DNA of 64,000 nucleotides from Klebsiella phage FKP3: the sequence record PP895363.1. One strand, 5' to 3'. The notes under the pieces are model-generated. The model was given only the letters and a program-made list of their open reading frames with translations. It was not told the DNA's origin and ran no database searches. The translations under genes and the position numbers were made by a program. Of this stretch, positions 7,163 to 60,890 are shown in pieces (the stretch's first letter is position 1; the number at the start of each line of letters is the position of its first letter).

Positions 7163-7495
7163 TTTACACCTCGTTAGATTGTTTGGTTTCTCTCTTCAAT
7201 GCCTCTTATTATAAAGAGGCATCACAGAAAGTCAACTTATTTTTTAACGATATTCATCCAAGGCAAGCTCGGCAAACGCTTTAAAAGCCTGCTCCGCCTC
7301 ATCATAATAATCGTAAGTTTCGGATTGTTCCCCATATGTTACGGTATATTGCAGATCCTCATAAGTCATAATAACCGGGTCGATACCTTTTATTTTAAGT
7401 TCTGCGATAATTTCCATTTGCTTACTCTCTTTGTTGGGCTAGTTTCTCTTCTCTATAGCGCCCATTATAGGACGCTATAACGAAAAGTCAACTGC

Positions 7496-7774
7496 TTATT
7501 TAACAGCGTGCCAGTAGTTTTTTGAACAGCCGATCACTGCAACGGCGTCGCCGCTTTCTGTGCGTACATGATGCATGATTTTACCGTCCTTAGTGGTGGA
7601 AGTTTCGGCGTAGATTGCCGCCACCTTATCGAACGGAATTTCAGCTCCACCCTTAACCATTTTGCCGTCGCCATTAGTGGCGAAACCAATGAATACAGAA
7701 TCACCGATACGCGGGGTTTTCAGCAGGTTAGTAGTAGTTGTCATGTGTATCTCCTTTATTGATGATATAGGCAT
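7496..7774 (-). CDS. hypothetical protein
   Basis: ORF 92 aa. Confidence 0.45.
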   Translation of the reverse strand: MPISSIKEIHMTTTTNLLKTPRIGDSVFIGFATNGDGKMVKGGAEIPFDKVAAIYAETSTTKDGKIMHHVRTESGDAVAVIGCSKNYWHAVK

Positions 7775-7852
7775 TATTGCCGGATGTTTCTTTTTCTCTA
7801 TGCCGTACAGGATAGCACGGCATAACGAAAAGTCAACTTATTTTTTCAGGCT

Positions 7853-36198: not shown

Positions 36199-37251
36199 AT
36201 GAATACTTTCAGCAAATTTTATAAGTGGCCTTCCATCTTTTTTGGAATAGCTTTGATTGCAGGTGCATGGATCGGATATGCAGAAGCGGGGATTACTGGT
36301 TTGATTAACGGGATGGTAGCAGTTGGTATTCTGTGTATTCTTGAAATCTCCCTGTCGTTTGATAACGCTGTACTTAATGCAAAGAAACTCCAAGATATGG
36401 AGCCTAAATGGCGAGACTGGTTTGTTAAGTGGGGTATGCTCATTGCAGTATTTGGTATGCGCTTAGTGTTGCCTATCCTTATTGTGTCTGTTCTAGGCGG
36501 GATGACACCGTGGAAAGCAGTGGATTTAGGTTTACATAATCCGGCAGAATACGCTTCTGTTCTACAAAGTAGTCATCATATTGTAGCAAGTTTCGGTGGT
36601 GCGTTCCTGATGATGGTTGCTCTTGAGTTCTTTTTAGACCATGAGAAAGACAACCACTGGTTCAAATGGATTGAATATCCAATCTCCCACATCGGTAAGA
36701 TTGGTATTGCAGCCGAAGCGGGTATTACAGCAGTTCTGATTCTTCTTGCAAGTCTGGGTGCGCATGACCACGAACGTGTAGTGTTCTGGATCTCTGGTGC
36801 AGCAGGTATTGGTTTGTTCGTAGCAATCCACTTCCTGAAAGAATACCTGGAGTCACATGATGAGAAAGCCTCTGCGGCAGCAGGTGCGGTAGTGAAGTCT
36901 GGTTTAGCTGGTGTGCTCTACCTTGAAGTTCTGGATGCATCCATGTCCTTCGACGGTCTGATTGCAGCATTCGCTATCACTCAATACTTCATCGTGATTA
37001 TGCTTGGTCTGGGCGTTGGTGCGTTCTTTGTGCGAGAAATGACTCTTCATGTTCTGGATTCAGGACATCTGGCAGAGTTCCGCTACTTGGAACACGGTGC
37101 GTTTTACGCAATCTTTGCCCTGGCAAGCATTATGCTCCTAAACTTCTTCTTTGAAGTTCCAGAGGTGGTAACTGGTTTGATGGGTGTAGCATTCTTAGGC
37201 TCTGCGGTGTATCACAGCCACATCCTGAATAAACGTGAAGCGACAGCTTAA
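36199..37251 (+). CDS. TerC-family / DUF475 integral membrane protein
   Basis: two internal repeats each with E(I/V)SLSFDN / LDASMSFDG motifs typical of TerC/DUF475; multiple TM helices. Confidence 0.6.
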   Translation: MNTFSKFYKWPSIFFGIALIAGAWIGYAEAGITGLINGMVAVGILCILEISLSFDNAVLNAKKLQDMEPKWRDWFVKWGMLIAVFGMRLVLPILIVSVLGGMTPWKAVDLGLHNPAEYASVLQSSHHIVASFGGAFLMMVALEFFLDHEKDNHWFKWIEYPISHIGKIGIAAEAGITAVLILLASLGAHDHERVVFWISGAAGIGLFVAIHFLKEYLESHDEKASAAAGAVVKSGLAGVLYLEVLDASMSFDGLIAAFAITQYFIVIMLGLGVGAFFVREMTLHVLDSGHLAEFRYLEHGAFYAIFALASIMLLNFFFEVPEVVTGLMGVAFLGSAVYHSHILNKREATA

Positions 37252-37258
37252 TCAAAAG

Positions 37259-37276
37259 AGCCTCCTTCGGGAGGCT
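37259..37276 (+). terminator. UUCG-tetraloop hairpin (agcctcc-ttcg-ggaggct) + ttctat
   Basis: read directly after stop of TerC-like gene. Confidence 0.45.
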
Positions 37277-37293
37277 TTCTATAGGAGAGAAAC

Positions 37294-37473
37294 ATGTATA
37301 CTTTGATTCTGATTTGGAGCATTGCAGCCAACTCAAACGGAGGTACGGAACATTTAACTGTCCCACACCTCACTTACCAAGAGTGTACGCAGCAAATTCG
37401 TAATTTTGAGGCAGGTAATGATAATCTATATCTGCGCTATAGTCAGTGCATTAATGAAGGAGCACAGCAGTGA
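37294..37473 (+). CDS. small hypothetical protein (59 aa)
   Basis: hand-found, AGGAGAGA RBS. Confidence 0.3.
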   Translation: MYTLILIWSIAANSNGGTEHLTVPHLTYQECTQQIRNFEAGNDNLYLRYSQCINEGAQQ

Positions 37474-37676
37474 AAATCCTGAAAGCAGTGTGGTTTGTGT
37501 TCGAAAGTATTTGTTTCGGTGTAGGTTTATTTATTTTAATTGTAGCATTGACAGCGGTAGTAAGTGGTGGTAGTATTAGCATCAGTAAAGACGAGAAGCC
37601 AGTTTTTTGCTACTCGTTAGATAACAATCAATGTATTAACACTTTAAGCGAGGAAACAAAACATGAACAAAACTAA
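37470..37676 (+). CDS. small membrane protein
   Basis: ORF 68 aa hydrophobic. Confidence 0.4.
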   Translation: MKILKAVWFVFESICFGVGLFILIVALTAVVSGGSISISKDEKPVFCYSLDNNQCINTLSEETKHEQN

Positions 37677-38226
37677 ACTGGTGATCGGTGCAATCATTAT
37701 CGGCCTAGGTGTTACAATGCTGAGCGCATGTGATGACGATGTTCCAGCACAAACCCAATACATCCCTGCGCCGCAGCAACAACAAGTGGATGAGCAGTAT
37801 GTTAACCAACAACCTCCACAAGTGATTCAGTCTGCTCCTGCGCCTGTTATCGTGCAGAGTGGCAGTCATGATTCCGGTGTTGGAGACTTTGCAACAGGTA
37901 TGATTTTAGGTCACATGATGTCTGGTGGTGGTAACAATGGCGGTGGTTATAGCAATAACTCTAGCCGTACCACGATCATCAATAACAACACTGTGGCTCA
38001 ACCACGCAGTAGCTACTCCTCAAATAGCCGTAGCTCTTATTCAACAAATAAGCAGGTGTATCAAAGCCAACCACGTTCAACGAGCACCCAAACGTATTCA
38101 CGTCCTACTATGAATACTAACAGTAGTTATACTACTAAAAAATCCTACTCTAGCCCACTAAGTTCTTCTCGTAGCTACAGTAGTTCTTCTAGCCGTAAAA
38201 GTTATAGCTCTAGTCGTCGTCGCTAA
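37663..38226 (+). CDS. lipoprotein with Ser/Tyr/Asn-rich low-complexity C-terminal half
   Basis: lipobox LSAC; repeats SYSSNSRSSYS..RSYSSSSSRKSYSSSRRR. Confidence 0.5.
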   Translation: MNKTKLVIGAIIIGLGVTMLSACDDDVPAQTQYIPAPQQQQVDEQYVNQQPPQVIQSAPAPVIVQSGSHDSGVGDFATGMILGHMMSGGGNNGGGYSNNSSRTTIINNNTVAQPRSSYSSNSRSSYSTNKQVYQSQPRSTSTQTYSRPTMNTNSSYTTKKSYSSPLSSSRSYSSSSSRKSYSSSRRR

Positions 38227-38238
38227 TAAGGAGGAAAC

Positions 38239-38478
38239 ATGTTTAATAATGCAAAGAAAGGTGATATCGCGGTAATGGTAGATACGGACTTTTCAGCACA
38301 CGGAGATAAAGATCAACTGGAGATTGTCCTAGTTGACGAAGAGGGTATCTACGTCTACGATCCGAATGACAGACTCCTTTTCGAACATGCCAGTGGTGTT
38401 GAATACAGCTTCTGTATTGACTTCAACGGTAAGTTGGCAGGACGTGAGCCAGCAATTAAAGAAATCATTCCGCAGTAA
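38239..38478 (+). CDS. hypothetical protein
   Basis: ORF 79 aa. Confidence 0.45.
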   Translation: MFNNAKKGDIAVMVDTDFSAHGDKDQLEIVLVDEEGIYVYDPNDRLLFEHASGVEYSFCIDFNGKLAGREPAIKEIIPQ

Positions 38479-39445
38479 GGTTGACTTTTGCTTAGGGATA
38501 CTTCATAGTGTCCCTTGTCAAGAGAAATAAATAAATGAAGGAGAAAGTATGAAACTTATTTTAGGTCGTGTGTACAATCTGAGCGGTTCCAGTTTTTCTA
38601 CACAAGTTTTAGAAGATAATAATAATCTGTTCTGGCTGGATCACATTGATCAGAGGATGAACGAGTGGCGTTTTAAAGGTTTGACTACAGGGGATTTTCA
38701 GTGGTCAAGCGCGGCTATGATCCGTGCTGGTGAAGCAGAAATTTTCTTGGTAGATGATAAACCGAAACGTGGTAAGCGTAAGAAAGGCCCATCTCGTAAA
38801 GCACCAAGTGTGAATAAGGCGACTATTCTGTTCATGAGCGGGGAAACCTACACTGTAAAAGGCTTTGTGTCCCTTGAAGCCACTGCTGAAAAAACTGTGT
38901 TTATTATGGAAGACACTTGGAAGGATACAGTAAATAGCCGTAATGGCGACTATTCTGTTCATGAGCGGGGAAACCTACACTGTAAAAGGCTTTGTGTCCC
39001 TTGAAGCCACTGCTGAAAAAACTGTGTTTATTATGGAAGACACTTGGAAGGATACAGTAAATAGCCGTAATGCAATCACTGTGTACAATGAGGATATTGC
39101 GCAGATAGATGTTCGTGGAATTAAGCATCAAGTGGTATTAGATATGGCTTTGAAAGATGAAGGCACGTTAGTGCTTCATTCTAAAGATATGCTAATATTT
39201 TTATCAGATCTAACTATTGCGGAATAAATAACAAAAGATGCATAGTACAAGAGATATTCTAAATTTATGGAAAACTACATTATGTAAATTTAAAGAAGAC
39301 TTTCCTGAATACGATGCCCTGCTAAAGGCCAACGGATGGCGAGCAGGTGTTAGAGAAAAAAGAAATAAATCTTTTGGTTGGGCAGATAATAGAAGTAAGT
39401 TAGTTATTATCAATTGGCATCTGCATAAAAACTCGGAAGAGCATA
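38446..39445. repeat. tandem duplication unit 1 (exactly 1000 bp)
   Basis: 38446-39445 identical to 39446-40445. Confidence 0.9.
38549..39227 (+). pseudogene. gene disrupted by internal 127-bp tandem duplication (two ORF fragments 38549..39004 and 38943..39227)
   Basis: 127-bp unit 38819-38945 repeated at 38946-39072 shifts frame; junction creates a new in-frame ATG for the C-terminal fragment. Confidence 0.6.
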
Positions 39446-39459
39446 GAGCCAGCAATTAA
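39238..39459 (+). pseudogene. truncated copy of SprT-like gene (N-terminal 70 codons) ending at duplication junction
   Basis: identical to first 208 nt of 40238..40816, then diverges at the 1000-bp repeat boundary. Confidence 0.6.
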
Positions 39460-40445
39460 AGAAATCATTCCGCAGTAAGGTTGACTTTTGCTTAGGGATA
39501 CTTCATAGTGTCCCTTGTCAAGAGAAATAAATAAATGAAGGAGAAAGTATGAAACTTATTTTAGGTCGTGTGTACAATCTGAGCGGTTCCAGTTTTTCTA
39601 CACAAGTTTTAGAAGATAATAATAATCTGTTCTGGCTGGATCACATTGATCAGAGGATGAACGAGTGGCGTTTTAAAGGTTTGACTACAGGGGATTTTCA
39701 GTGGTCAAGCGCGGCTATGATCCGTGCTGGTGAAGCAGAAATTTTCTTGGTAGATGATAAACCGAAACGTGGTAAGCGTAAGAAAGGCCCATCTCGTAAA
39801 GCACCAAGTGTGAATAAGGCGACTATTCTGTTCATGAGCGGGGAAACCTACACTGTAAAAGGCTTTGTGTCCCTTGAAGCCACTGCTGAAAAAACTGTGT
39901 TTATTATGGAAGACACTTGGAAGGATACAGTAAATAGCCGTAATGGCGACTATTCTGTTCATGAGCGGGGAAACCTACACTGTAAAAGGCTTTGTGTCCC
40001 TTGAAGCCACTGCTGAAAAAACTGTGTTTATTATGGAAGACACTTGGAAGGATACAGTAAATAGCCGTAATGCAATCACTGTGTACAATGAGGATATTGC
40101 GCAGATAGATGTTCGTGGAATTAAGCATCAAGTGGTATTAGATATGGCTTTGAAAGATGAAGGCACGTTAGTGCTTCATTCTAAAGATATGCTAATATTT
40201 TTATCAGATCTAACTATTGCGGAATAAATAACAAAAGATGCATAGTACAAGAGATATTCTAAATTTATGGAAAACTACATTATGTAAATTTAAAGAAGAC
40301 TTTCCTGAATACGATGCCCTGCTAAAGGCCAACGGATGGCGAGCAGGTGTTAGAGAAAAAAGAAATAAATCTTTTGGTTGGGCAGATAATAGAAGTAAGT
40401 TAGTTATTATCAATTGGCATCTGCATAAAAACTCGGAAGAGCATA
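39446..40445. repeat. tandem duplication unit 2 (exactly 1000 bp)
   Basis: exact copy of the preceding 1000 bp. Confidence 0.9.
39549..40227 (+). pseudogene. second copy of the 127-bp-duplication-disrupted gene
   Basis: identical to 38549..39227. Confidence 0.6.
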
Positions 40446-40816
40446 ACATTGTTGATACTATGCTACATGAGATAGCCCATGCAATAGATTTTTGTAAAAG
40501 AGGTAGATCTGATCATGGCGCTGCATGGAAAGCAATAGCGCAGGAAATAGGAGCTATTCCTAAAGCTGTATCAAAGCGTTCTGTTAAAACAGAATATCCT
40601 TGGGTAATGGCTCTCGTATCAGATGGCGAATTAAGATTTATCAGAGGGTATAATCGCCGTCCTTCTAGGCAAAAACCTAATAGTATAATGTGGGGAACCT
40701 ACCTTAGTAAAGATAAGGAAGGAACCATTGATAAAATTTGGTTATTGTCTTGGGAAGAATGGCTTAAGAAGTGTGATGCTATGGGGATCTCTCCCTACTA
40801 TGAAGACAGAAAATAA
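40238..40816 (+). CDS. SprT-like zinc metallopeptidase-domain protein
   Basis: HEIAH (HExxH) motif in TMLHEIAHAIDF context, about 190 aa. Confidence 0.5.
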   Translation: MHSTRDILNLWKTTLCKFKEDFPEYDALLKANGWRAGVREKRNKSFGWADNRSKLVIINWHLHKNSEEHNIVDTMLHEIAHAIDFCKRGRSDHGAAWKAIAQEIGAIPKAVSKRSVKTEYPWVMALVSDGELRFIRGYNRRPSRQKPNSIMWGTYLSKDKEGTIDKIWLLSWEEWLKKCDAMGISPYYEDRK

Positions 40817-40825
40817 GGAGGCAAC

Positions 40826-41923
40826 ATGTCTAGTCCATTTTTAACTGCTGTTAAAACAACTCCAAGCAAGAGTGCATTGGCTGCAAAAGAAGATACACGG
40901 TCGGCATTAGCCCCAACTGTCTTTGATTCTAGCCCTGTGTATGCGCCTGCTGTAGTAAAACCTGTTCCAGACCTCCCTGCAATGACTCGTAAAGAGATTG
41001 ATAATGTAGGTGCAGAGGCTGGATTAACTCTACGTAGTTTAAACAATGAAGTGCTGAAACATCAGCGTGGTAATCAGGGTGGAGAGATGAATGAACGTCT
41101 CACCGCTCTTATTAAACAAGCTAAACAATTAGACCCCAGCGCGATTAAACAATCGAAGGGTGTTGGCAAGTTCATCAAAAAGTTGATGGGTATGAAAGAA
41201 GACCTGTTTGCAGAGTATGATACTATTAATAATCGTATTGATGTTCTTGTCAAAGAACTGGAGGGCGATGTTAGAAAAGAAGAAGATTCTCTTGTTTATC
41301 TCGAAAAACTTAAAATGGCTATTGGACAATATGCATTAAGTTTAAATCGGGATGTAGAACTTTTGACAGATACCTATGAGAAAGAAGAAGCACGTTTCAA
41401 TATGCTACCAGAGGATCAGGTCGAAGAACGCCAAGCTGTGCGTGATACTTTAGACATTCTGGAGATCCGTATTGCCGACTTAAAAGCGCTGCGTCTTCTT
41501 TGTGTCCAAATGGGGCCACGTGTTAATAGTATGATCAAAGTAAGCGAAATGCTTATGCGATCTGCACGTAACATCGTGAACAATGTTATTCCAGCGTACT
41601 CTGCCAACTTCTCAATGTATATTGAGAGTTTGCGTCAGGCAGAAGCTGGTCAAACCCAAGCTAATGTATTGGATGAATTCCAAGTAGCGCTAAAAATGGG
41701 TAGTGATTTAGCAGCACAAAATATTATTACTGCAACTGAACTCTCTAATCGTCAAGTGCTGGATATTGAAACACTCCGTCACGATCAAGAAAATCTGGTA
41801 CGTATGCTGGAAGAAACAAACCGAATCAATACTGAAGCACGTGCTGCCCGTATTGAGTACATCAATGAAGTACAATCCCTAGAGGATGGGATGGTACAGA
41901 AAGTCAAAGCTGGTTTAGTCTAA
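40826..41923 (+). CDS. TelA-like (toxic anion resistance family) coiled-coil protein
   Basis: length, Ala/Pro/Ser-rich N-terminus followed by long helical Glu/Leu/Arg-rich region resembling TelA/YceH; context next to TerC/TerD genes; no motif check possible. Confidence 0.45.
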   Translation: MSSPFLTAVKTTPSKSALAAKEDTRSALAPTVFDSSPVYAPAVVKPVPDLPAMTRKEIDNVGAEAGLTLRSLNNEVLKHQRGNQGGEMNERLTALIKQAKQLDPSAIKQSKGVGKFIKKLMGMKEDLFAEYDTINNRIDVLVKELEGDVRKEEDSLVYLEKLKMAIGQYALSLNRDVELLTDTYEKEEARFNMLPEDQVEERQAVRDTLDILEIRIADLKALRLLCVQMGPRVNSMIKVSEMLMRSARNIVNNVIPAYSANFSMYIESLRQAEAGQTQANVLDEFQVALKMGSDLAAQNIITATELSNRQVLDIETLRHDQENLVRMLEETNRINTEARAARIEYINEVQSLEDGMVQKVKAGLV

Positions 41924-41932
41924 GGAGAAATT

Positions 41933-42133
41933 ATGCTTATTCGTGTATACAAAGGCAAAGACGCAATTTTAGTGAGATATGATGGGGAACTACGTGTAGC
42001 ACCTATGGGAGTATCTTGGTTAGGTAGGGGTTTTATCTCAATGGTCACAGATTTGAGACATTTATATTCTTATGACCCTATCACTGAAAAGCAGTTAGCA
42101 GGTCTAGAAATCCTCCTAGAGGAGGTGTGCTAA
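41933..42133 (+). CDS. hypothetical protein
   Basis: ORF 66 aa. Confidence 0.4.
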   Translation: MLIRVYKGKDAILVRYDGELRVAPMGVSWLGRGFISMVTDLRHLYSYDPITEKQLAGLEILLEEVC

Positions 42134-42348
42134 TGAAAGTAGCTATTCTTATTGAAGATTGTGGAGATGGGAGTTCTTGTCTTCGTTGGTTTAAAGACCT
42201 TGACTTAGCCGAGGCACTGGCGTATAGTGATGATTATTGCGAAGAATTCGGTGGTAGTGAAGGTACAACAGTGATTGAAGTTGGTGACGACTTTATCCCA
42301 CCTGGTGGTTTCGATGACAACTGTGAATGGGATATCACCGATGAATGA
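42127..42348 (+). CDS. small highly acidic protein
   Basis: about 30% Asp/Glu. Confidence 0.45.
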   Translation: MLMKVAILIEDCGDGSSCLRWFKDLDLAEALAYSDDYCEEFGGSEGTTVIEVGDDFIPPGGFDDNCEWDITDE

Positions 42349-42532
42349 TAAAATTGTCTTGACACGCCTTGAGTTAAAGACTATCATCGAAGACGCTTTC
42401 ATAGATGGTTGGAATACACAAGATAACGATTGGGCCTCTGCGGAGGCATATCTTGAACATCACAATGACTATGGTGATGAGTGTGAAACAACTATTGCAC
42501 TTAAAAACTTAATGGAGGGCAATAATGAGTGA
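42341..42532 (+). CDS. hypothetical protein (internal ATG start)
   Basis: in frame with track ORF 42275..42532. Confidence 0.35.
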   Translation: MNDKIVLTRLELKTIIEDAFIDGWNTQDNDWASAEAYLEHHNDYGDECETTIALKNLMEGNNE

Positions 42533-42687
42533 AGAATTTTTGACTTGGTTTGAACGATTTTATGAAAGTAAACCTTACTTTACAAAGGAAGAAAAAGAAG
42601 AGCTTAAGTTTCACACATGGTTTGCATGGCGCGATTCACGCCGTGCAGATGACTTAAAAGAAGTTGAAAAAGGAGATAAAGAATGAG
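42526..42687 (+). CDS. small hypothetical protein
   Basis: hand-found 53-aa ORF. Confidence 0.3.
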
Positions 42688-43477
42688 CGAAAAAATTAGT
42701 CTGGTTAAACGCCAAGAGAAACTCGTAATCAGCCTCAAAAAGAAAAAGATCGCACAGATCACCCTGCGTGTAGCATCTGCGCTGGATATCTCAGGTAGTA
42801 TGGGTAGTCTGTATCGTAATGGTACTGTAAGTGATTTTGTAGGTAAACTCTTACCGTTTGGTATGCAATTTGACGATAATGCTCAGATTGATATGTGGGC
42901 GTTTGACCACGGCTGTCGTGAGCTGCCTCCTGCAACAGCGTCTGTCTATGATGATTATGTAGGCAAGTGTATGCGTGGTATTTCAATCTCCGGTGGTACA
43001 GCCTATGCTCCAGTGATGCAAGAGATTTATGATGAGTATTTTGGTAAAGTACCTATGAAAACCGTCTCTCGTGAGATCGATATACAGGAAAAACGTCCTG
43101 TGAGTGGTTTCTTTGCTAAGCTGACAGGCAAAACCGAAACTGTAACTGTGAAGAAAACTATCACTGAACAAGTACCAGATACTTCTGTGCCAGTCGATAC
43201 AACCCCCGCTATGGTGTTCTTCCAGACAGATGGCGACAACTCTGATAAAGAAGCCGTGCGTAGCCTGCTTTCTCGTAACCGTGGCAAACCTATTTATTGG
43301 TTTATGGTGGGCGTAGGTCAGGAAAGCTTTAGCTTCCTGAAAGAACTCGCTCGTGATTACGATAACGTCGATTTTATTGGCGTAGATGACCTTGACCTTT
43401 CAGATGAAGAACTGTATGATAAGCTTCTGTCTGACGAATTTGGTCAGTGGGTTGAGAAAGTTGGTGCAAAAAGCTAA
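42683..43477 (+). CDS. von Willebrand factor A (vWA) domain protein, TerY-like
   Basis: MIDAS motif LDISGSMGS near N-terminus. Confidence 0.55.
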   Translation: MSEKISLVKRQEKLVISLKKKKIAQITLRVASALDISGSMGSLYRNGTVSDFVGKLLPFGMQFDDNAQIDMWAFDHGCRELPPATASVYDDYVGKCMRGISISGGTAYAPVMQEIYDEYFGKVPMKTVSREIDIQEKRPVSGFFAKLTGKTETVTVKKTITEQVPDTSVPVDTTPAMVFFQTDGDNSDKEAVRSLLSRNRGKPIYWFMVGVGQESFSFLKELARDYDNVDFIGVDDLDLSDEELYDKLLSDEFGQWVEKVGAKS

Positions 43478-43571
43478 AATATTTCTTGACACTTAGAAAG
43501 AAAAGAGTAGAATAAGTTTCACAAAGGGGAGAGATGGCTCTCCCCAGTAAACAAAATAAAGGAGAATATAC

Positions 43572-44174
43572 ATGTCTGAGAAAATTTCCCTCAAAAAAGG
43601 TTCTAGCGAAAAGATTTCCCTGAAGAAAATTGCTCCGCTGCTTAAAGAAATCCGTCTGGAGTTTAGCTGGAAATCTGGTGGTAAACTTGATCTGGACGTT
43701 AGTGCGCTGATTTGCCGTCATAACGCTGCTGGCAACCCAGAGATGCTTTCTGCACGTCATTTAGTGTGCTATGGTAATAAGTTCGACCCAGAGCGTTCTA
43801 CTTTTGCAGGTGCAGATGTTCGTGATGGTACTGGGGAAATGGAACAAATCGACATTACTCTGGATAAAATCTCTGCAAATGCTAATGAGGTAGCTTTTGT
43901 GATTACTATCGACGACGATACTGGTCGTGCTCGCTTAGGTAATGCTACCGAAGGTATGCTGAAAATCTTCGACGCAGAACGTAACGTTGAGATCCTGGAC
44001 TTTGACTTCCTTGCACCGGAAGTTGCTGGTAATACTATCTGCCACGTAGCATCTCTTGTTCGTGAAGACGGTGAATGGAAACTGAAAGCATATGGGGTTG
44101 GTAAAGCTGGTATGGATATTTGCGATGTAGTTGCTGCCTTTGGTGGCGATCCTGCCTGGTACGAATGCCCGTAA
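43572..44174 (+). CDS. terD: TerD-family protein
   Basis: colinear with E. coli TerD: MSxxISLKKG, LDLDxSAL, GTGEMEQIDITLDKIS...VAFVITIDD, GEWKLKAYGVGKAG. Confidence 0.8.
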   Translation: MSEKISLKKGSSEKISLKKIAPLLKEIRLEFSWKSGGKLDLDVSALICRHNAAGNPEMLSARHLVCYGNKFDPERSTFAGADVRDGTGEMEQIDITLDKISANANEVAFVITIDDDTGRARLGNATEGMLKIFDAERNVEILDFDFLAPEVAGNTICHVASLVREDGEWKLKAYGVGKAGMDICDVVAAFGGDPAWYECP

Positions 44175-55650: not shown

Positions 55651-55704
55651 TATTCAGTGAATATTAGTTATTAACCACATTTTTAGCAAAAGTAAATAAA
55701 TAAA

Positions 55705-55727
55705 GGGAGCCAGATGGCTCCCTTTTT
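55705..55727. terminator. bidirectional rho-independent terminator
   Basis: gggagcc-agat-ggctccc flanked by A-run upstream and T-run downstream; separates plus block from minus tail block. Confidence 0.6.
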
Positions 55728-55729
55728 AC

Positions 55730-55882
55730 TTAGTCGAGTTCATTTTTAGCTAATTCGATCTGTTCTTCATGTGTTACAATGTTTCCATTGTCGTCTTTTT
55801 CTTGCACATGAAGACTTTTTGCAGCCAAAGTAGTAAATCTGACTTCAAATCTATTATTAAAAATATCTTGTAGCTCTTCCAT
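55730..55882 (-). CDS. small hypothetical protein (50 aa)
   Basis: hand-found, GAGG RBS. Confidence 0.3.
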   Translation of the reverse strand: MEELQDIFNNRFEVRFTTLAAKSLHVQEKDDNGNIVTHEEQIELAKNELD

Positions 55883-55888
55883 AAAACC

Positions 55889-57862
55889 TCATAAATTTAT
55901 TTTAACAGCTTTAGTAGATACATCATAATATAGTTGACCAGTTGAACCTGGTGTACTTGCCATATCTGGTGTAACTAAGGCTGTAGTATTTATTTGTTTT
56001 CTGTTCAGTGTTCTGAACCCCAGCACTGGATTTGTCACAGCATCTGATCTATATTCATAAGAACTTCCCTTTGAAAACAACTGGTATACACTACCAGTTG
56101 GATCTGTATATTTATAATTATTATCAAAAGATCTTTGGTCAGAATAAGAAAAAGCTACATTATATGTATCATAAATAGCTTCATAATTATTATTTGTACC
56201 CATACCTAATGAAAAAATATAATCAAAGCCCTTACCATTAACTTTAACACTACAGAATTGACCACCATTAAATTTTATTGCTGATTGTCTTCCTGTACCT
56301 ACTAGGAAATAGTCTCCATGTATTGCAGTAATATCAACACTACAATGTTGGATATAAGCATTATTCGCGGCTGTGGCATAAAAAACTACACCGTCTGTGA
56401 CATTATATCCAGATCCTGTCACTGTACAACCTATTACAGGGGTAGTCGCTGAATTTCCAATGAAAGCAGATACATACTGTGCATTATAGGCGGTTACTTT
56501 TCCAGAACAAGCTTGACATCCATAACCTATTATAACACCACCACCTTCTACAATATCCGTAGCAGATACATCAAAGGTTATATTTTTACAAGCATTCCAT
56601 AAATGTAGACCTGCATGATAGGCTTTGTTAGTTACTAATTTTATATTACCATTAACGTTATTACTTTCAGATTCTATCCCTGCATATGCACTGTCATTTG
56701 CAATAACATCAAAAATAAAATCTGAACATGCATCTAATTTAAAACAACTTCCAAGGGCTAAATCTGAACTTGCCGATGTTGGTTGTGGATAGATTTGACC
56801 TGATTTTTTTGCCGTACAATAGACTTTCATATTTTTAGATCCATTATTAGCAAAAAATGGGAAAACTGCATTAGATAATATTACAGATTTATCTATATAT
56901 AGTCCATCTACTCCATTAACCCAAAGACTTAATGTATTTGCTAAAGGGGACGTAAATATTTGTCTACTATCTATTAATGTGCTACTTTGGTATGCATATA
57001 AAGGTTTATTAGTCGGATCTTCTGATGTTATTGTAATCTTACCAATCAATGAACTATTAGACCCTGTTATTTTTAAAGTTGTGAATCCTGAATAACTTGC
57101 ATTAGGTGGTGTTTTCCTGGTAAGTGTGGAATCAGCCCCCTCTAAAGAAATTTTATTTTTAGCAATAACCCAACCATCTAAAGATTGAGAGTTATTTGGA
57201 AAGTCATTATAATAAGTAGCATTAGGCATTAATTTAATATAATCACCATCTATCAAACTAGAAAGCATTTTAGCAAATGGTACTGTATCTGGTATTGAAA
57301 TACCCATACCTCTGCAACCATACCATTCAGGTTTTACTACTTTATTACTATAATACTCCAAACGAACAAAAACAAAACTAGGATCAATTGAACTAACGAC
57401 TTTGCCGCCATCTGCTATGAAATTTGTAGAATTTTGGACAATAAATTCTCCACCACCAACAACATAACCTACAGCATATTCTGTTAAATAAATTCTCTGT
57501 CCCACTTTTGTAGGTTTAATCAGTTGTAAATTGGCAACATCTGTAACACTGCCAAGATAAAGTAAACCACTTGGAGAAGATAAATCTGATAATGAAGAAG
57601 CTTTAGTAATTATAAAAGTTCCACTATTTGTAACTAGTGTTAATGTATTACCAGAAATACTCCAAGATATAGGTGTGCCAATTGCAGAACCTCTATACCA
57701 ACAGGTTTGTGTATCTTCATCATATAAAATTGTATATGAATCTACTGCTGTTGAAGTTGATAAATAACCAACTTGTCTCTTTTTAAGCCCGAATACTCGA
57801 GCTATTGCTTCCTTATTGGTCTCCTTAGAGACGATACCTTTTGGTTGTGTTAGTTGTACCAT
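55889..57862 (-). CDS. tailspike/tail fiber with right-handed beta-helix (pectate-lyase-like) domain
   Basis: KPEWYGCRGMG..DTVPFAKML..GDYIKLMPNATY resembles Pectate_lyase_3 N-terminal signature; G/N/T-rich repeats. Confidence 0.55.
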   Translation of the reverse strand: MVQLTQPKGIVSKETNKEAIARVFGLKKRQVGYLSTSTAVDSYTILYDEDTQTCWYRGSAIGTPISWSISGNTLTLVTNSGTFIITKASSLSDLSSPSGLLYLGSVTDVANLQLIKPTKVGQRIYLTEYAVGYVVGGGEFIVQNSTNFIADGGKVVSSIDPSFVFVRLEYYSNKVVKPEWYGCRGMGISIPDTVPFAKMLSSLIDGDYIKLMPNATYYNDFPNNSQSLDGWVIAKNKISLEGADSTLTRKTPPNASYSGFTTLKITGSNSSLIGKITITSEDPTNKPLYAYQSSTLIDSRQIFTSPLANTLSLWVNGVDGLYIDKSVILSNAVFPFFANNGSKNMKVYCTAKKSGQIYPQPTSASSDLALGSCFKLDACSDFIFDVIANDSAYAGIESESNNVNGNIKLVTNKAYHAGLHLWNACKNITFDVSATDIVEGGGVIIGYGCQACSGKVTAYNAQYVSAFIGNSATTPVIGCTVTGSGYNVTDGVVFYATAANNAYIQHCSVDITAIHGDYFLVGTGRQSAIKFNGGQFCSVKVNGKGFDYIFSLGMGTNNNYEAIYDTYNVAFSYSDQRSFDNNYKYTDPTGSVYQLFSKGSSYEYRSDAVTNPVLGFRTLNRKQINTTALVTPDMASTPGSTGQLYYDVSTKAVKINL

Positions 57863-58206
57863 TATTTCTCCAATATAACTATAACTTTATCCAACCCATA
57901 GCGAACCAGTTAAATGTAGCCTTGTTATTAACCTTTAGGAATTAGTTTATATCTATTCACTAGAATAAGAACATACATTAAAAAGAAAATGCACTGAGTT
58001 AGGTGCGTTTTATTTGATACTATTCAATTAGGATATGACGAACTACTCAAACAATACTTTTGCAACAGGGGTTGACCTATCACCTCTGTTAATTTGCTAG
58101 CGCTAAAATACCGGATTAGCAGTTGATAGTTGAGAACGCTGTCACTATTTTAATGTACCCGTCAGCGCACAACTGGCGGGGTTTTAAGTTATTGTTTTAA
58201 TGTAAC

Positions 58207-58488
58207 TTACTGATAATTTGCGGTTGTTCGTACATACTCCTCCGCCTCTTCCTGAGATGTTACAGAAGTATCTTCGATATTGATGTTCTCAAAGAATTGG
58301 TATGTTTCTCCACCGTCAGCACTCACCATTACCACAGCGGTTTTCGTTGATGTATCCCCTGGTCCGAATACTGTCAACACGCTTGAAACTTTGAACGTCA
58401 GACTTATCTCTACGCTCTCCGGGCTTAGCAGAATTCCAGAATCCGTAGTTCGTGTAACGGTAACAGTTCGATTAATAGAAAATGACAT
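58207..58488 (-). CDS. hypothetical protein
   Basis: ORF 93 aa. Confidence 0.35.
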   Translation of the reverse strand: MSFSINRTVTVTRTTDSGILLSPESVEISLTFKVSSVLTVFGPGDTSTKTAVVMVSADGGETYQFFENINIEDTSVTSQEEAEEYVRTTANYQ

Positions 58489-58499
58489 TTTAACTCTCC

Positions 58500-60890
58500 T
58501 TATAGATCGGCAAACATTACAAAACTGAACTGGATCTCTCCAGTAAGCGACAGCGGGTTAATGTATGCCCCGGTTGCTGCATTAAAGAAAACAATACCTA
58601 CAATTGTACCTGTGTTATCAGTTTGTATAGATACGTTAACTGCCGTCCCGGTAGTATTTCGGTTAATAGAGGGCATTCCAACGAACGAGAATTTTTTACC
58701 CCCACCAAAAATTAGGCTGATGCCGGAGTTCTGGGTGGTAGCAGAGATTGCAGAGTTTCCACTACCGACTGAAACAGGCGTTGTGTCTAAGACGGCTGTA
58801 CTGACTGAGTTATCATACAGACCCCCAATCCCAAATCTTGGCGCGTTACCTGAAGCGTAAGACACTAAATTCTGGAATGTAAAACCTGACGCACCATTGA
58901 ACGCGAATTTAAATTTCAGAGCCTGTAATTTTAGCGTTGAACTTCTGGTCGTATTATTCAGCAGCAAGGAAACAATTGGGCTAACATTACTATATGTCTG
59001 GTTTGATACTATGCCTGGATGTGCGACAAGATTTCCATCGACTGAACCATCCTGACCTTCTGTGACCCCAGAAAAACGCCCATTGATAAAGGTCTTACCG
59101 TTAGAGCTAGTAAAAATTTTCTGTCCACCAGAAGATGGAGCGAGTGACCATCCGTCAAAGTTAATGAACGCACCGTAGTTATAAATCGAGTAATTAGTGG
59201 CCCACTCGAAACGACAAGCGCGCGCATAAACGTGAGTTTCACCCATCCCTGAGACGTTAGCACTCATGTCTACGTACAGGTTAGAGCCATTGTGGTCGAG
59301 CAGGGTTTGGACGAGATGAATGTCCATTGAGTCCGCCGGAGCACCCTTCACGTAAATACCATACCCACAGTTAAAAATTTTGCTCTGCGATACTGTACTG
59401 AATACGCCAGTGGCCAGGTAGGAGGTGTTGGCGTTATCTACAATGATACCGTACCCGTTGCCGAGATAGTTCCAGATGTAGGTGTTCCGTAAATGCACGT
59501 CGAACGTGGTATTTTTTATCATAATACCATCACCGGACACTTTCCCCGCACCAGCTAAGTTTGTACCATCAATTAGCGTAGTATCGAAGATAACGTTGCT
59601 GAGCATAGTGTTAGCTGAATCTGGGTCCCACAGGTTAAAGTGGCACTGCTTAAACCACAGGCCTTTAAACTCCTGGCTAATAACTGCGTTCGCACCGGCA
59701 CGCAGGTAAACGGTAGCGCCAAGTAATCCACGCGTGCGTCCAGCCCCAACGAGAGATACCCCCGGCTTCACGTAAATAGTTCCACATGCATAAAATCCAG
59801 ATGATTGCGGAAATTTTACGCTTGCCAGACCAGCACTTGCTGCGGCGTCAATGGCTTTCTGAATAGCCGTTGTATTTGTTGCGGTATTAGTAGTGTTTGA
59901 ATCTCCAATTGCGCCGAACCAGGTTACATCGAAATCGACGACACCAACCCGCTGCCAGTACCACGTGGATGAGCCAGTCGGTACGCAGATAGTACCTCCG
60001 TCATCTGTCGCTGTACCAGCACGAGCCACGAACTCACCTCCGCCAGTAGTGCCATTGGCATAGTAGGATGCCAGCAAAATGCGTTGACCAGCACTATCAG
60101 GAATGATGTTTTTTAGAGCTGCATAACTGGCAACCTGCCCGATGTATTTAAAGCCTTCGCCTGAACCCAGTTTTTGCTGTTTGACTGTCTTATCTAACTC
60201 GTCTTGGACAGTTTCCCCAGAACTAGTACCTATAATATTTGCAGCAGTATTCGCAGCCAGCCCTATATAAGTTACATAGTTAGTATCAGGATTACCTTCC
60301 TCAACTTTACCAATATAGCAAAATAATATATCTGGAACCTCTGCATCCGGCTCTGGTACAAGCGCTGGTGTAAAGCTAATGGTATTATTAGCAATTGTAT
60401 AATCTTTACCTGGTACTAATACTGCGCTATTATATGTAACAATAGCAGTATCAAATTCATACGGAGGAACAATAGAACTTGTTACTTGAGTAATCTCTGT
60501 TGACCAAGGGTGTACTTGTGCCGGAATTGATTGCGTAGCAGTCTGGTATAATCTCCAATTATCATCATCTGAAGGTGTACTTCCCATAGCTATAGGGTTA
60601 TCTAGAGTAGCTTGAGGAGCATAATACCATCCAGAAGTTGCCAGAGTACCGTCAAAGTAGTATAACTGATTAAAAACAGTAGATGATTCTCCTTCTACCC
60701 AGTTAATAGGTGTCTTAAAATAAAAATTATCTACGAGAGCTTTACGTAGAGTAGGAATGTCTCCATTCTCTGTTTCTACTGTTGTCAACGCATCCCCATT
60801 AATGACATCATGCAATTGGTTAGATGCAAAAATTGTTAACTCAACTGCTTGAGTAAACGTTGTTGCCGGGTAGACAGGATAAGTAGCCAT
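58500..60890 (-). CDS. tailspike with pectate-lyase-3-type beta-helix depolymerase domain
   Basis: VDFDVTWFGAIGDSNTTNTATNTTAIQKAIDAAASAGLASVKFPQSSGFYACGTIYV is the classic tailspike beta-helix opening. Confidence 0.65.
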   Translation of the reverse strand: MATYPVYPATTFTQAVELTIFASNQLHDVINGDALTTVETENGDIPTLRKALVDNFYFKTPINWVEGESSTVFNQLYYFDGTLATSGWYYAPQATLDNPIAMGSTPSDDDNWRLYQTATQSIPAQVHPWSTEITQVTSSIVPPYEFDTAIVTYNSAVLVPGKDYTIANNTISFTPALVPEPDAEVPDILFCYIGKVEEGNPDTNYVTYIGLAANTAANIIGTSSGETVQDELDKTVKQQKLGSGEGFKYIGQVASYAALKNIIPDSAGQRILLASYYANGTTGGGEFVARAGTATDDGGTICVPTGSSTWYWQRVGVVDFDVTWFGAIGDSNTTNTATNTTAIQKAIDAAASAGLASVKFPQSSGFYACGTIYVKPGVSLVGAGRTRGLLGATVYLRAGANAVISQEFKGLWFKQCHFNLWDPDSANTMLSNVIFDTTLIDGTNLAGAGKVSGDGIMIKNTTFDVHLRNTYIWNYLGNGYGIIVDNANTSYLATGVFSTVSQSKIFNCGYGIYVKGAPADSMDIHLVQTLLDHNGSNLYVDMSANVSGMGETHVYARACRFEWATNYSIYNYGAFINFDGWSLAPSSGGQKIFTSSNGKTFINGRFSGVTEGQDGSVDGNLVAHPGIVSNQTYSNVSPIVSLLLNNTTRSSTLKLQALKFKFAFNGASGFTFQNLVSYASGNAPRFGIGGLYDNSVSTAVLDTTPVSVGSGNSAISATTQNSGISLIFGGGKKFSFVGMPSINRNTTGTAVNVSIQTDNTGTIVGIVFFNAATGAYINPLSLTGEIQFSFVMFADL

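Follow-up and report, generated by a model that had tools for sequence, protein, structure and literature searches.

A 1000-nt tandem repeat in a Klebsiella phage sequence is most probably an artefact of circular contig handling

As written, the phage sequence analysed here contains an exact 1000-nt tandem repeat at positions 38446-40445. Judging from the arrangement of the sequence and its relatives, this repeat is most probably (with a probability of about 0.87) an in-silico artefact of the handling of a circular or circularly permuted contig, and not a duplication of the phage DNA. In the following, the window means the whole 64-kb stretch of DNA that was analysed, and coordinates refer to it unless another record is named. 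The source phage belongs to a group of large lytic Klebsiella myoviruses (Stephanstirmvirinae) with genomes of about 145-150 kb. By direct base comparison within the window, 38446-39445 and 39446-40445 differ at 0 of 1000 positions, just as a preliminary description of this DNA had claimed. The shared sequence stops at both edges and extends 0 nt further, which means that there is zero microhomology at the junction; the same description had noted that none was obvious there. The flanks of the repeat read GGCAGGACGT/GAGCCAGCAA, GAAGAGCATA/GAGCCAGCAA, and GAAGAGCATA/ACATTGTTGA. An exact match of 1000 nt cannot have arisen by chance. A repeat finder and a count of 20-mer offsets revealed only three exact self-repeats in the window, with periods of 1000, 127, and 500.

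The period-127 repeat, which was not part of the preliminary description, sits at the exact midpoint of the 1000-nt unit. In the first unit it occupies 38819-39072 (38819-38945 followed by 38946-39072), and an identical pair lies at 39819-40072 inside the second unit. Thus, the repeat finder listed four copies of the 127-mer (family D1) with a spacing of 127/873/127. The paired 127-mers are 100% identical and have 1 nt of microhomology at their junction. Due to this chance matching base, the phase of the repeat is ambiguous by 1 nt, and 38818-38944 followed by 38945-39071 is equally valid. With the phase 38819-38945/38946-39072, each 1000-nt unit splits into two halves. The first half (38446-38945) is exactly 500 nt in length with the 127-mer at its end, while the second half (38946-39445) is exactly 500 nt in length with the 127-mer at its start. 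If the second half is called head500 and the first tail500, the stretch 38946-39945 was computed to be head500 followed by tail500. The layout of the sequence is X/head500/tail500/Y, in which tail500 is the end of X (to 38945) and head500 the start of Y (from 39946). This geometry can be read directly from the window. If the position of the unit in the 64-kb window were random, the chance of base-exact centring on the 127-mer junction would be about 1 in 64,000. No known mechanism of recombination would place a second duplication symmetrically around the junction of an earlier one. Unequal crossing-over between the 127-mers was also considered and rejected; it would alter the copy number of the period-127 repeat and would not create a period-1000 unit. 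In natural tandem duplications, the junction usually lies at a short homology and the length is arbitrary. Here, the junction homologies are 0 and 1 nt and the lengths are 1000, 127, and 500.

What might produce a 127-nt direct repeat? A contig whose two ends are identical over 127 nt is the standard sign that SPAdes, at its largest k-mer, has assembled a circular or circularly permuted genome. The length of the direct repeat in the window equals this largest assembler k (127). An artificial 127-bp overlap at contig ends has been described as the usual terminal overlap of SPAdes contigs (PMC5923482), and in a phage genome announcement the 127-bp terminal repeats were removed before the genome was re-opened (PMC8104045). 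In both papers, such overlaps are treated as an artefact that should be removed from phage assemblies (PMC5923482, PMC8104045). The present repeat resembles these overlaps in that it is an exact 127-nt direct repeat which is absent from the relatives and breaks a conserved ORF. It may therefore be a k = 127 overlap left untrimmed at the ends of a circular contig. However, the 127-mers are adjacent in the interior of the sequence rather than at its two ends. Therefore, the contig would have been joined and re-opened untrimmed. Indirect support for a former position of the 127-mers at the raw contig ends comes from the 500 + 500 nt centred on their junction.

Is this arrangement found in related phages? 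Among GenBank records, those closest to the window (92-94% identity) are phi1_175008 (PQ360875 and PP357458), KP13-26 (OP617743), and KP2025 (PP919962), while plasmid sequences gave no match to the window. Ten further independent Logan/ENA assemblies with contigs of 32-150 kb were found via an exact look-up of a 79-aa protein encoded at the left edge of the repeat. The preliminary description had proposed to look for a single-copy arrangement in related genomes, and the region is indeed single-copy in all 13 related Klebsiella phage genomes or assemblies (3 from GenBank and 10 from Logan/ENA). The absence of the repeat from the relatives is thus a direct observation. For comparison with them, 39446-40445 and one 127-mer (1127 nt) were removed from the window. 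The de-duplicated window is colinear with the three GenBank relatives across the region, and every start and stop codon is in place. The local gene order in the relatives is a TerC/DUF475 membrane protein, three small ORFs, a 79-aa (or other small) ORF, a 180/181-aa ORF, a 192-aa SprT-like protein, and a 365-aa TelA-like protein, with vWA-TerF-like and TerD genes further downstream. All ten Logan/ENA assemblies have the single-copy order of 79 aa, 180/183 aa, 192-aa SprT-like, and 365-aa TelA. The de-duplicated unit of 873 nt has a single match site in each of the ten, although a divergent stretch splits the match in two of them (L012 and L018). The closest of the ten (L020, ERR15728726 contig 8085) gives a gapless 96% match to this unit. 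No exact repeat of at least about 50 nt was found in the 321 kb of relatives' DNA examined.

The whole 64-kb window is colinear with KP2025, in reverse orientation. The sole breaks in this colinearity are the back-steps at 317/318 and 39445/39446 and the 127-nt repeat. Downstream of 40445 (from 40446), the window is colinear with the relatives and represents the native continuation. Hence the 127-nt repeat is absent from the relatives, and removal of one copy restores the native sequence. Searches of other collections were also performed. A junction-spanning 40-mer and the native 40-mer had no match in IMG/VR, a 25-mer common to the junction and native forms had no match in viral or GTDB contigs, and exact-protein look-ups of the truncated and full SprT proteins returned no match. 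The same 25-mer found one relative in metagenomes at 94.5% identity, which starts inside sprT and hence is uninformative on the repeat.

Two other differences among these phages were seen during the comparison. The stretch 55651-60268, with ORFs at 55889-57862 and 58500-60890 on the minus strand, is the only long one without a megablast match to KP2025. Its counterpart in KP2025 encodes tail fibre and tail spike proteins, and the stretch is probably a swapped receptor-binding module for capsule specificity. In one Logan contig (L016, ERR11195214 contig 173, positions 1-361), the UvrD-type helicase upstream of the region is 950 aa in length, while it is 613 aa elsewhere. The longer protein has a weak LAGLIDADG match, which suggests an intein or a homing-endonuclease insertion that is variable among these phages.

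The genes in and around the unit were analysed. On its left side, the unit begins 33 nt ahead of the stop codon of a hypothetical gene for a 79-aa protein (38239-38478, plus strand). An exact-sequence look-up found the identical protein in at least 24 public contigs, each of which has single-copy neighbours after it. The next gene is a conserved hypothetical gene (38549-39227, plus strand), which is split by the 127-nt repeat into two ORFs at 38549-39004 and 38943-39227. Its second copy at 39549-40227 is equally broken. Since 127 is not a multiple of three, the 183-aa ORF is frameshifted in both units; because both units have the 127-nt repeat, the window as written lacks an intact 183-aa ORF. 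Removal of one 127-mer directly restores a protein of 183 aa, whose alignment with the 180/181-aa homologues from three relatives runs from end to end. The ORFs of the window diverge from these homologues exactly at the 127-nt repeat.

The junction of the two units falls in the SprT-like gene. The truncated ORF (39238-39459, plus strand) encodes 73 aa, consisting of 69 native codons and 4 foreign codons (RASN-stop). This agrees with the approximately 70 codons assigned to the first copy in the preliminary description, which had also called the second copy complete. The second copy (40238-40816, plus strand) indeed encodes an intact SprT-like metallopeptidase of 192 aa with HEIAH at residues 77-81, and it matches Pfam PF10263 with an E value of 1e-11 (45 bits against a gathering score of 25.6). 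Thus, the ORF at 40238-40816 has both the PF10263 score and the HExxH motif of a SprT-like protein. The 73-aa ORF at 39238-39459 has neither; it has no Pfam match, and it ends ahead of HEIAH and lacks HExxH. Orthologues of 192 aa exist in all relatives examined. The SprT-like gene is a member of a tellurite-resistance-type gene cluster at 36199-44174 on the plus strand of this lytic Klebsiella myovirus. Other members are TerC/DUF475 (36199-37251), TelA (40826-41923), a vWA-TerF-like gene (42683-43477) whose family was taken from orthologues in related loci, and a probable TerD gene (43572-44174) assigned from synteny with the 200-aa TerD-family ORFs of the relatives. The cluster is conserved in all relatives examined and is partly annotated there.

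The unit also contains a promoter-like site, by consensus match only (TTGACT, 17 nt, CATAGT; 38481-38509, plus strand), which is duplicated at 39481-39509. The GTTGACTTTT motif of this site recurs elsewhere in the window. There is a family of intergenic repeats of about 53 nt, in which a short hairpin or a -10-like element comes after AAGTTGACTTTT. They were found at 7193-7846 on the minus strand and at 38479-38489 and 39479-39489 on the plus strand, with a spacing of about 250-350 nt among small ORFs, and one copy falls within the duplicated unit. These repeats are probably a reiterated early promoter. Scans for tRNAs and terminators added no information.

Could the repeat be a real duplication? 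A genuine and very recent event would have to proceed in two steps; 127 nt would be duplicated inside the 183-aa gene, and then 1000 nt that include this first repeat, e.g., through illegitimate recombination while concatemers are replicated. As in natural tandem duplications of phages, a head-to-tail repeat has given a truncated and an intact gene copy. The copies are identical, as a very recent event predicts, and the nesting order is self-consistent in that the 127-nt repeat is found in both units. Amplification of a unit with a promoter-like site and a gene would be selectable in principle, and 1.1 kb would add little to a genome of about 145-150 kb. Phages do have natural tandem duplications that lack microhomology, and this was counted against the artefact reading. 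Nevertheless, I regard the two-step duplication as highly improbable. It needs four independent coincidences: a length of 1000, an inner repeat of 127 that equals the assembler k, the 500/500 centring, and the period-500 repeat. The last of these lies 38 kb away at the conventional genome start. Unlike a natural duplication, the present one combines lengths that are round or k-mer-sized with a symmetric centring on the inner repeat, and microhomology is absent (0 nt for the 1000-nt repeat and 1 nt for the 127-nt repeat). Moreover, the conserved 183-aa ORF is intact in neither copy, and the arrangement is missing from all 13 relatives. If the nested repeats were physically present, for which there is a very slim chance, they would represent a very recent amplification of a segment of the early region, with the promoter-like site, the hypothetical gene, and the 5′ portion of the SprT-like gene, in which the copies have not yet diverged. 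The preliminary description had left the choice between an artefact and a very recent duplication. Its artefact option is now strongly supported by the 500 + 500 nt centring, the 127-mer, the single-copy relatives, and the frameshifted conserved ORF, while the duplication is very unlikely because several independent numerical coincidences would be required.

The artefact may have been generated in four steps, of which I infer the assembler and the padding from the geometry described above. An assembler of the de Bruijn graph type, typically SPAdes, would have been run at k = 127 and would have produced a genome-length contig with identical first and last 127 nt, and this terminal overlap would have been left untrimmed. 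The contig would then have been padded with 500 nt from the opposite ends (last 500 + contig + first 500). Finally, the padded sequence would have been treated as a circle and re-opened elsewhere, near the conventional genome start of the group. Joining of the padded ends would give the order contig end/first 500/last 500/contig start, that is, two identical 1000-nt units with the 127-mer doubled at each centre. The layout of the window has this order; therefore, a padded contig seems to have been joined and rotated without trimming. The first unit (38446-39445) would consist of the last 500 nt of the contig (38446-38945) and the pasted first 500 nt (38946-39445), and the second unit (39446-40445) of the pasted last 500 nt (39446-39945) and the true contig start (39946-40445). 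By-products of this process would be the truncated SprT-like copy, an additional 3′ piece of the 79-aa gene, and the frameshift in each of the two copies of the 183-aa gene. The stretch 38946-39945 (the first 500 and last 500 nt of the contig) would be surplus padding, and the window is colinear with three relatives once it is de-duplicated. The native sequence would be the window minus 38946-39945 and one 127-mer, 1127 nt in total.

Padding of the ends of a circular reference lets reads map across these ends. The code of PhageTerm reportedly extends both ends of the reference by an "edge" of 500 nt taken from the opposite end; the 500-nt padding is not stated in the PhageTerm paper. This "edge" is a possible origin of the 500-nt pads and may serve as a lead. 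Phage pipelines usually run a termini caller and thereafter re-open the genome, either at the terminus that was called or where a reference begins (PMC11845039). The unit consists of the last N and the first N nucleotides around the 127-mer junction, and N is a round number (500), as would be expected for end padding. The order of segments is that of the joined ends of a 500-nt-padded sequence, which is the likeness to end padding in PhageTerm-style pipelines. On the other hand, the period-500 repeat at 1-817 differs from simple end padding and needs a further step.

The preliminary description had also mentioned a 500-bp offset repeat at the window start. It was found that 1-317 is exactly the same as 501-817. 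The period-500 repeat at 1-817 consists of a 500-nt block (318-817) preceded by its own last 317 nt (1-317); the first copy would start 183 nt ahead of the window and is cut by the window edge. The block is single-copy in the relatives. Position 1 of the linear record PQ360875 corresponds to approximately window position 830, 13 nt from the end of the block, and positions 239-452 of the E. coli phage VEcB, near the VEcB start, match 380-591. Rather than being a natural terminal repeat, the period-500 repeat is probably a second leftover of end handling, and it supports the artefact reading of the 1000-nt repeat. PQ360875 itself carries 343 bp that are exactly repeated at both of its ends (positions 1-343 and 149200-149542). 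This end repeat corresponds to about 488-830 of the window, and its boundaries differ from those of the 500-nt block. PP357458, an earlier record of phi1_175008, is 248 bp shorter than PQ360875. Beside the conventional genome start, a region of about 2 kb at approximately 835-2300 (2218-4181 in L004) has no annotated gene in KP13-26 and aligns with indels among the relatives. It may hold packaging or replication signals.

Since the relatives seem to be terminally redundant, as exemplified by the exact end repeat of PQ360875, it was considered whether the 1000-nt repeat is a mis-assembly of a real repeat or of physical ends, in which a direct terminal repeat or a concatemer junction was resolved into two copies. 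This is scarcely credible. The terminal region of PQ360875 corresponds to about 488-830, which is 38 kb from 38446-40445, and a real terminal repeat would not have a k-sized inner repeat at its exact centre. Rather, the ends of related records correspond to about 380-830 of the window, while 38446-40445 is intragenic, inside conserved genes, in every relative.

The other candidate is that the sequence file was edited, deliberately or by accident, in a way that has nothing to do with assembly. Examples would be a spiked test feature, a copy-paste error, or overlapping 500/1000-nt chunks that were concatenated. Round lengths of 1000 and 500, exact identity, and zero microhomology would all be natural for such an edit. 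However, random placement would not centre the unit to the base on the 127-nt repeat, and a second repeat would not be expected within 13 nt of the start of a related linear record. In addition, the spacing of the two junctions (39445 - 317 = 39128) is not a multiple of the chunk size. A file edit is therefore very unlikely, and in practice it would also be an in-silico artefact with the same verdict.

In the contig-handling explanation, both round-number repeats would lie at ends handled by software, one at the raw ends of the contig and the other at the conventional genome start. A single processing step that yields both the 1000-nt and the period-500 patterns was sought, and no derivation was found. 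To account for the two patterns, one has to assume at least two rounds of padding or re-opening, or else a wrap-around that arose on cutting the window.

The 1000-nt repeat would thus have no biological significance for the phage. Its value lies in quality control, and the source record needs correction. At this locus, 1127 bases of the sequence as written are surplus, as are probably another 500 at the start of the window. The sequence also has a spurious SprT-like ORF, which is truncated, and a conserved gene that is frameshifted in both of its copies. As long as the padding and the 127-nt overlap stay in place, any annotation, gene-content comparison, or genome length taken from this sequence would be wrong. 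A repeat of k-mer size with a round-number duplication placed symmetrically around it may serve as a simple rule for finding the same error in other phage records.
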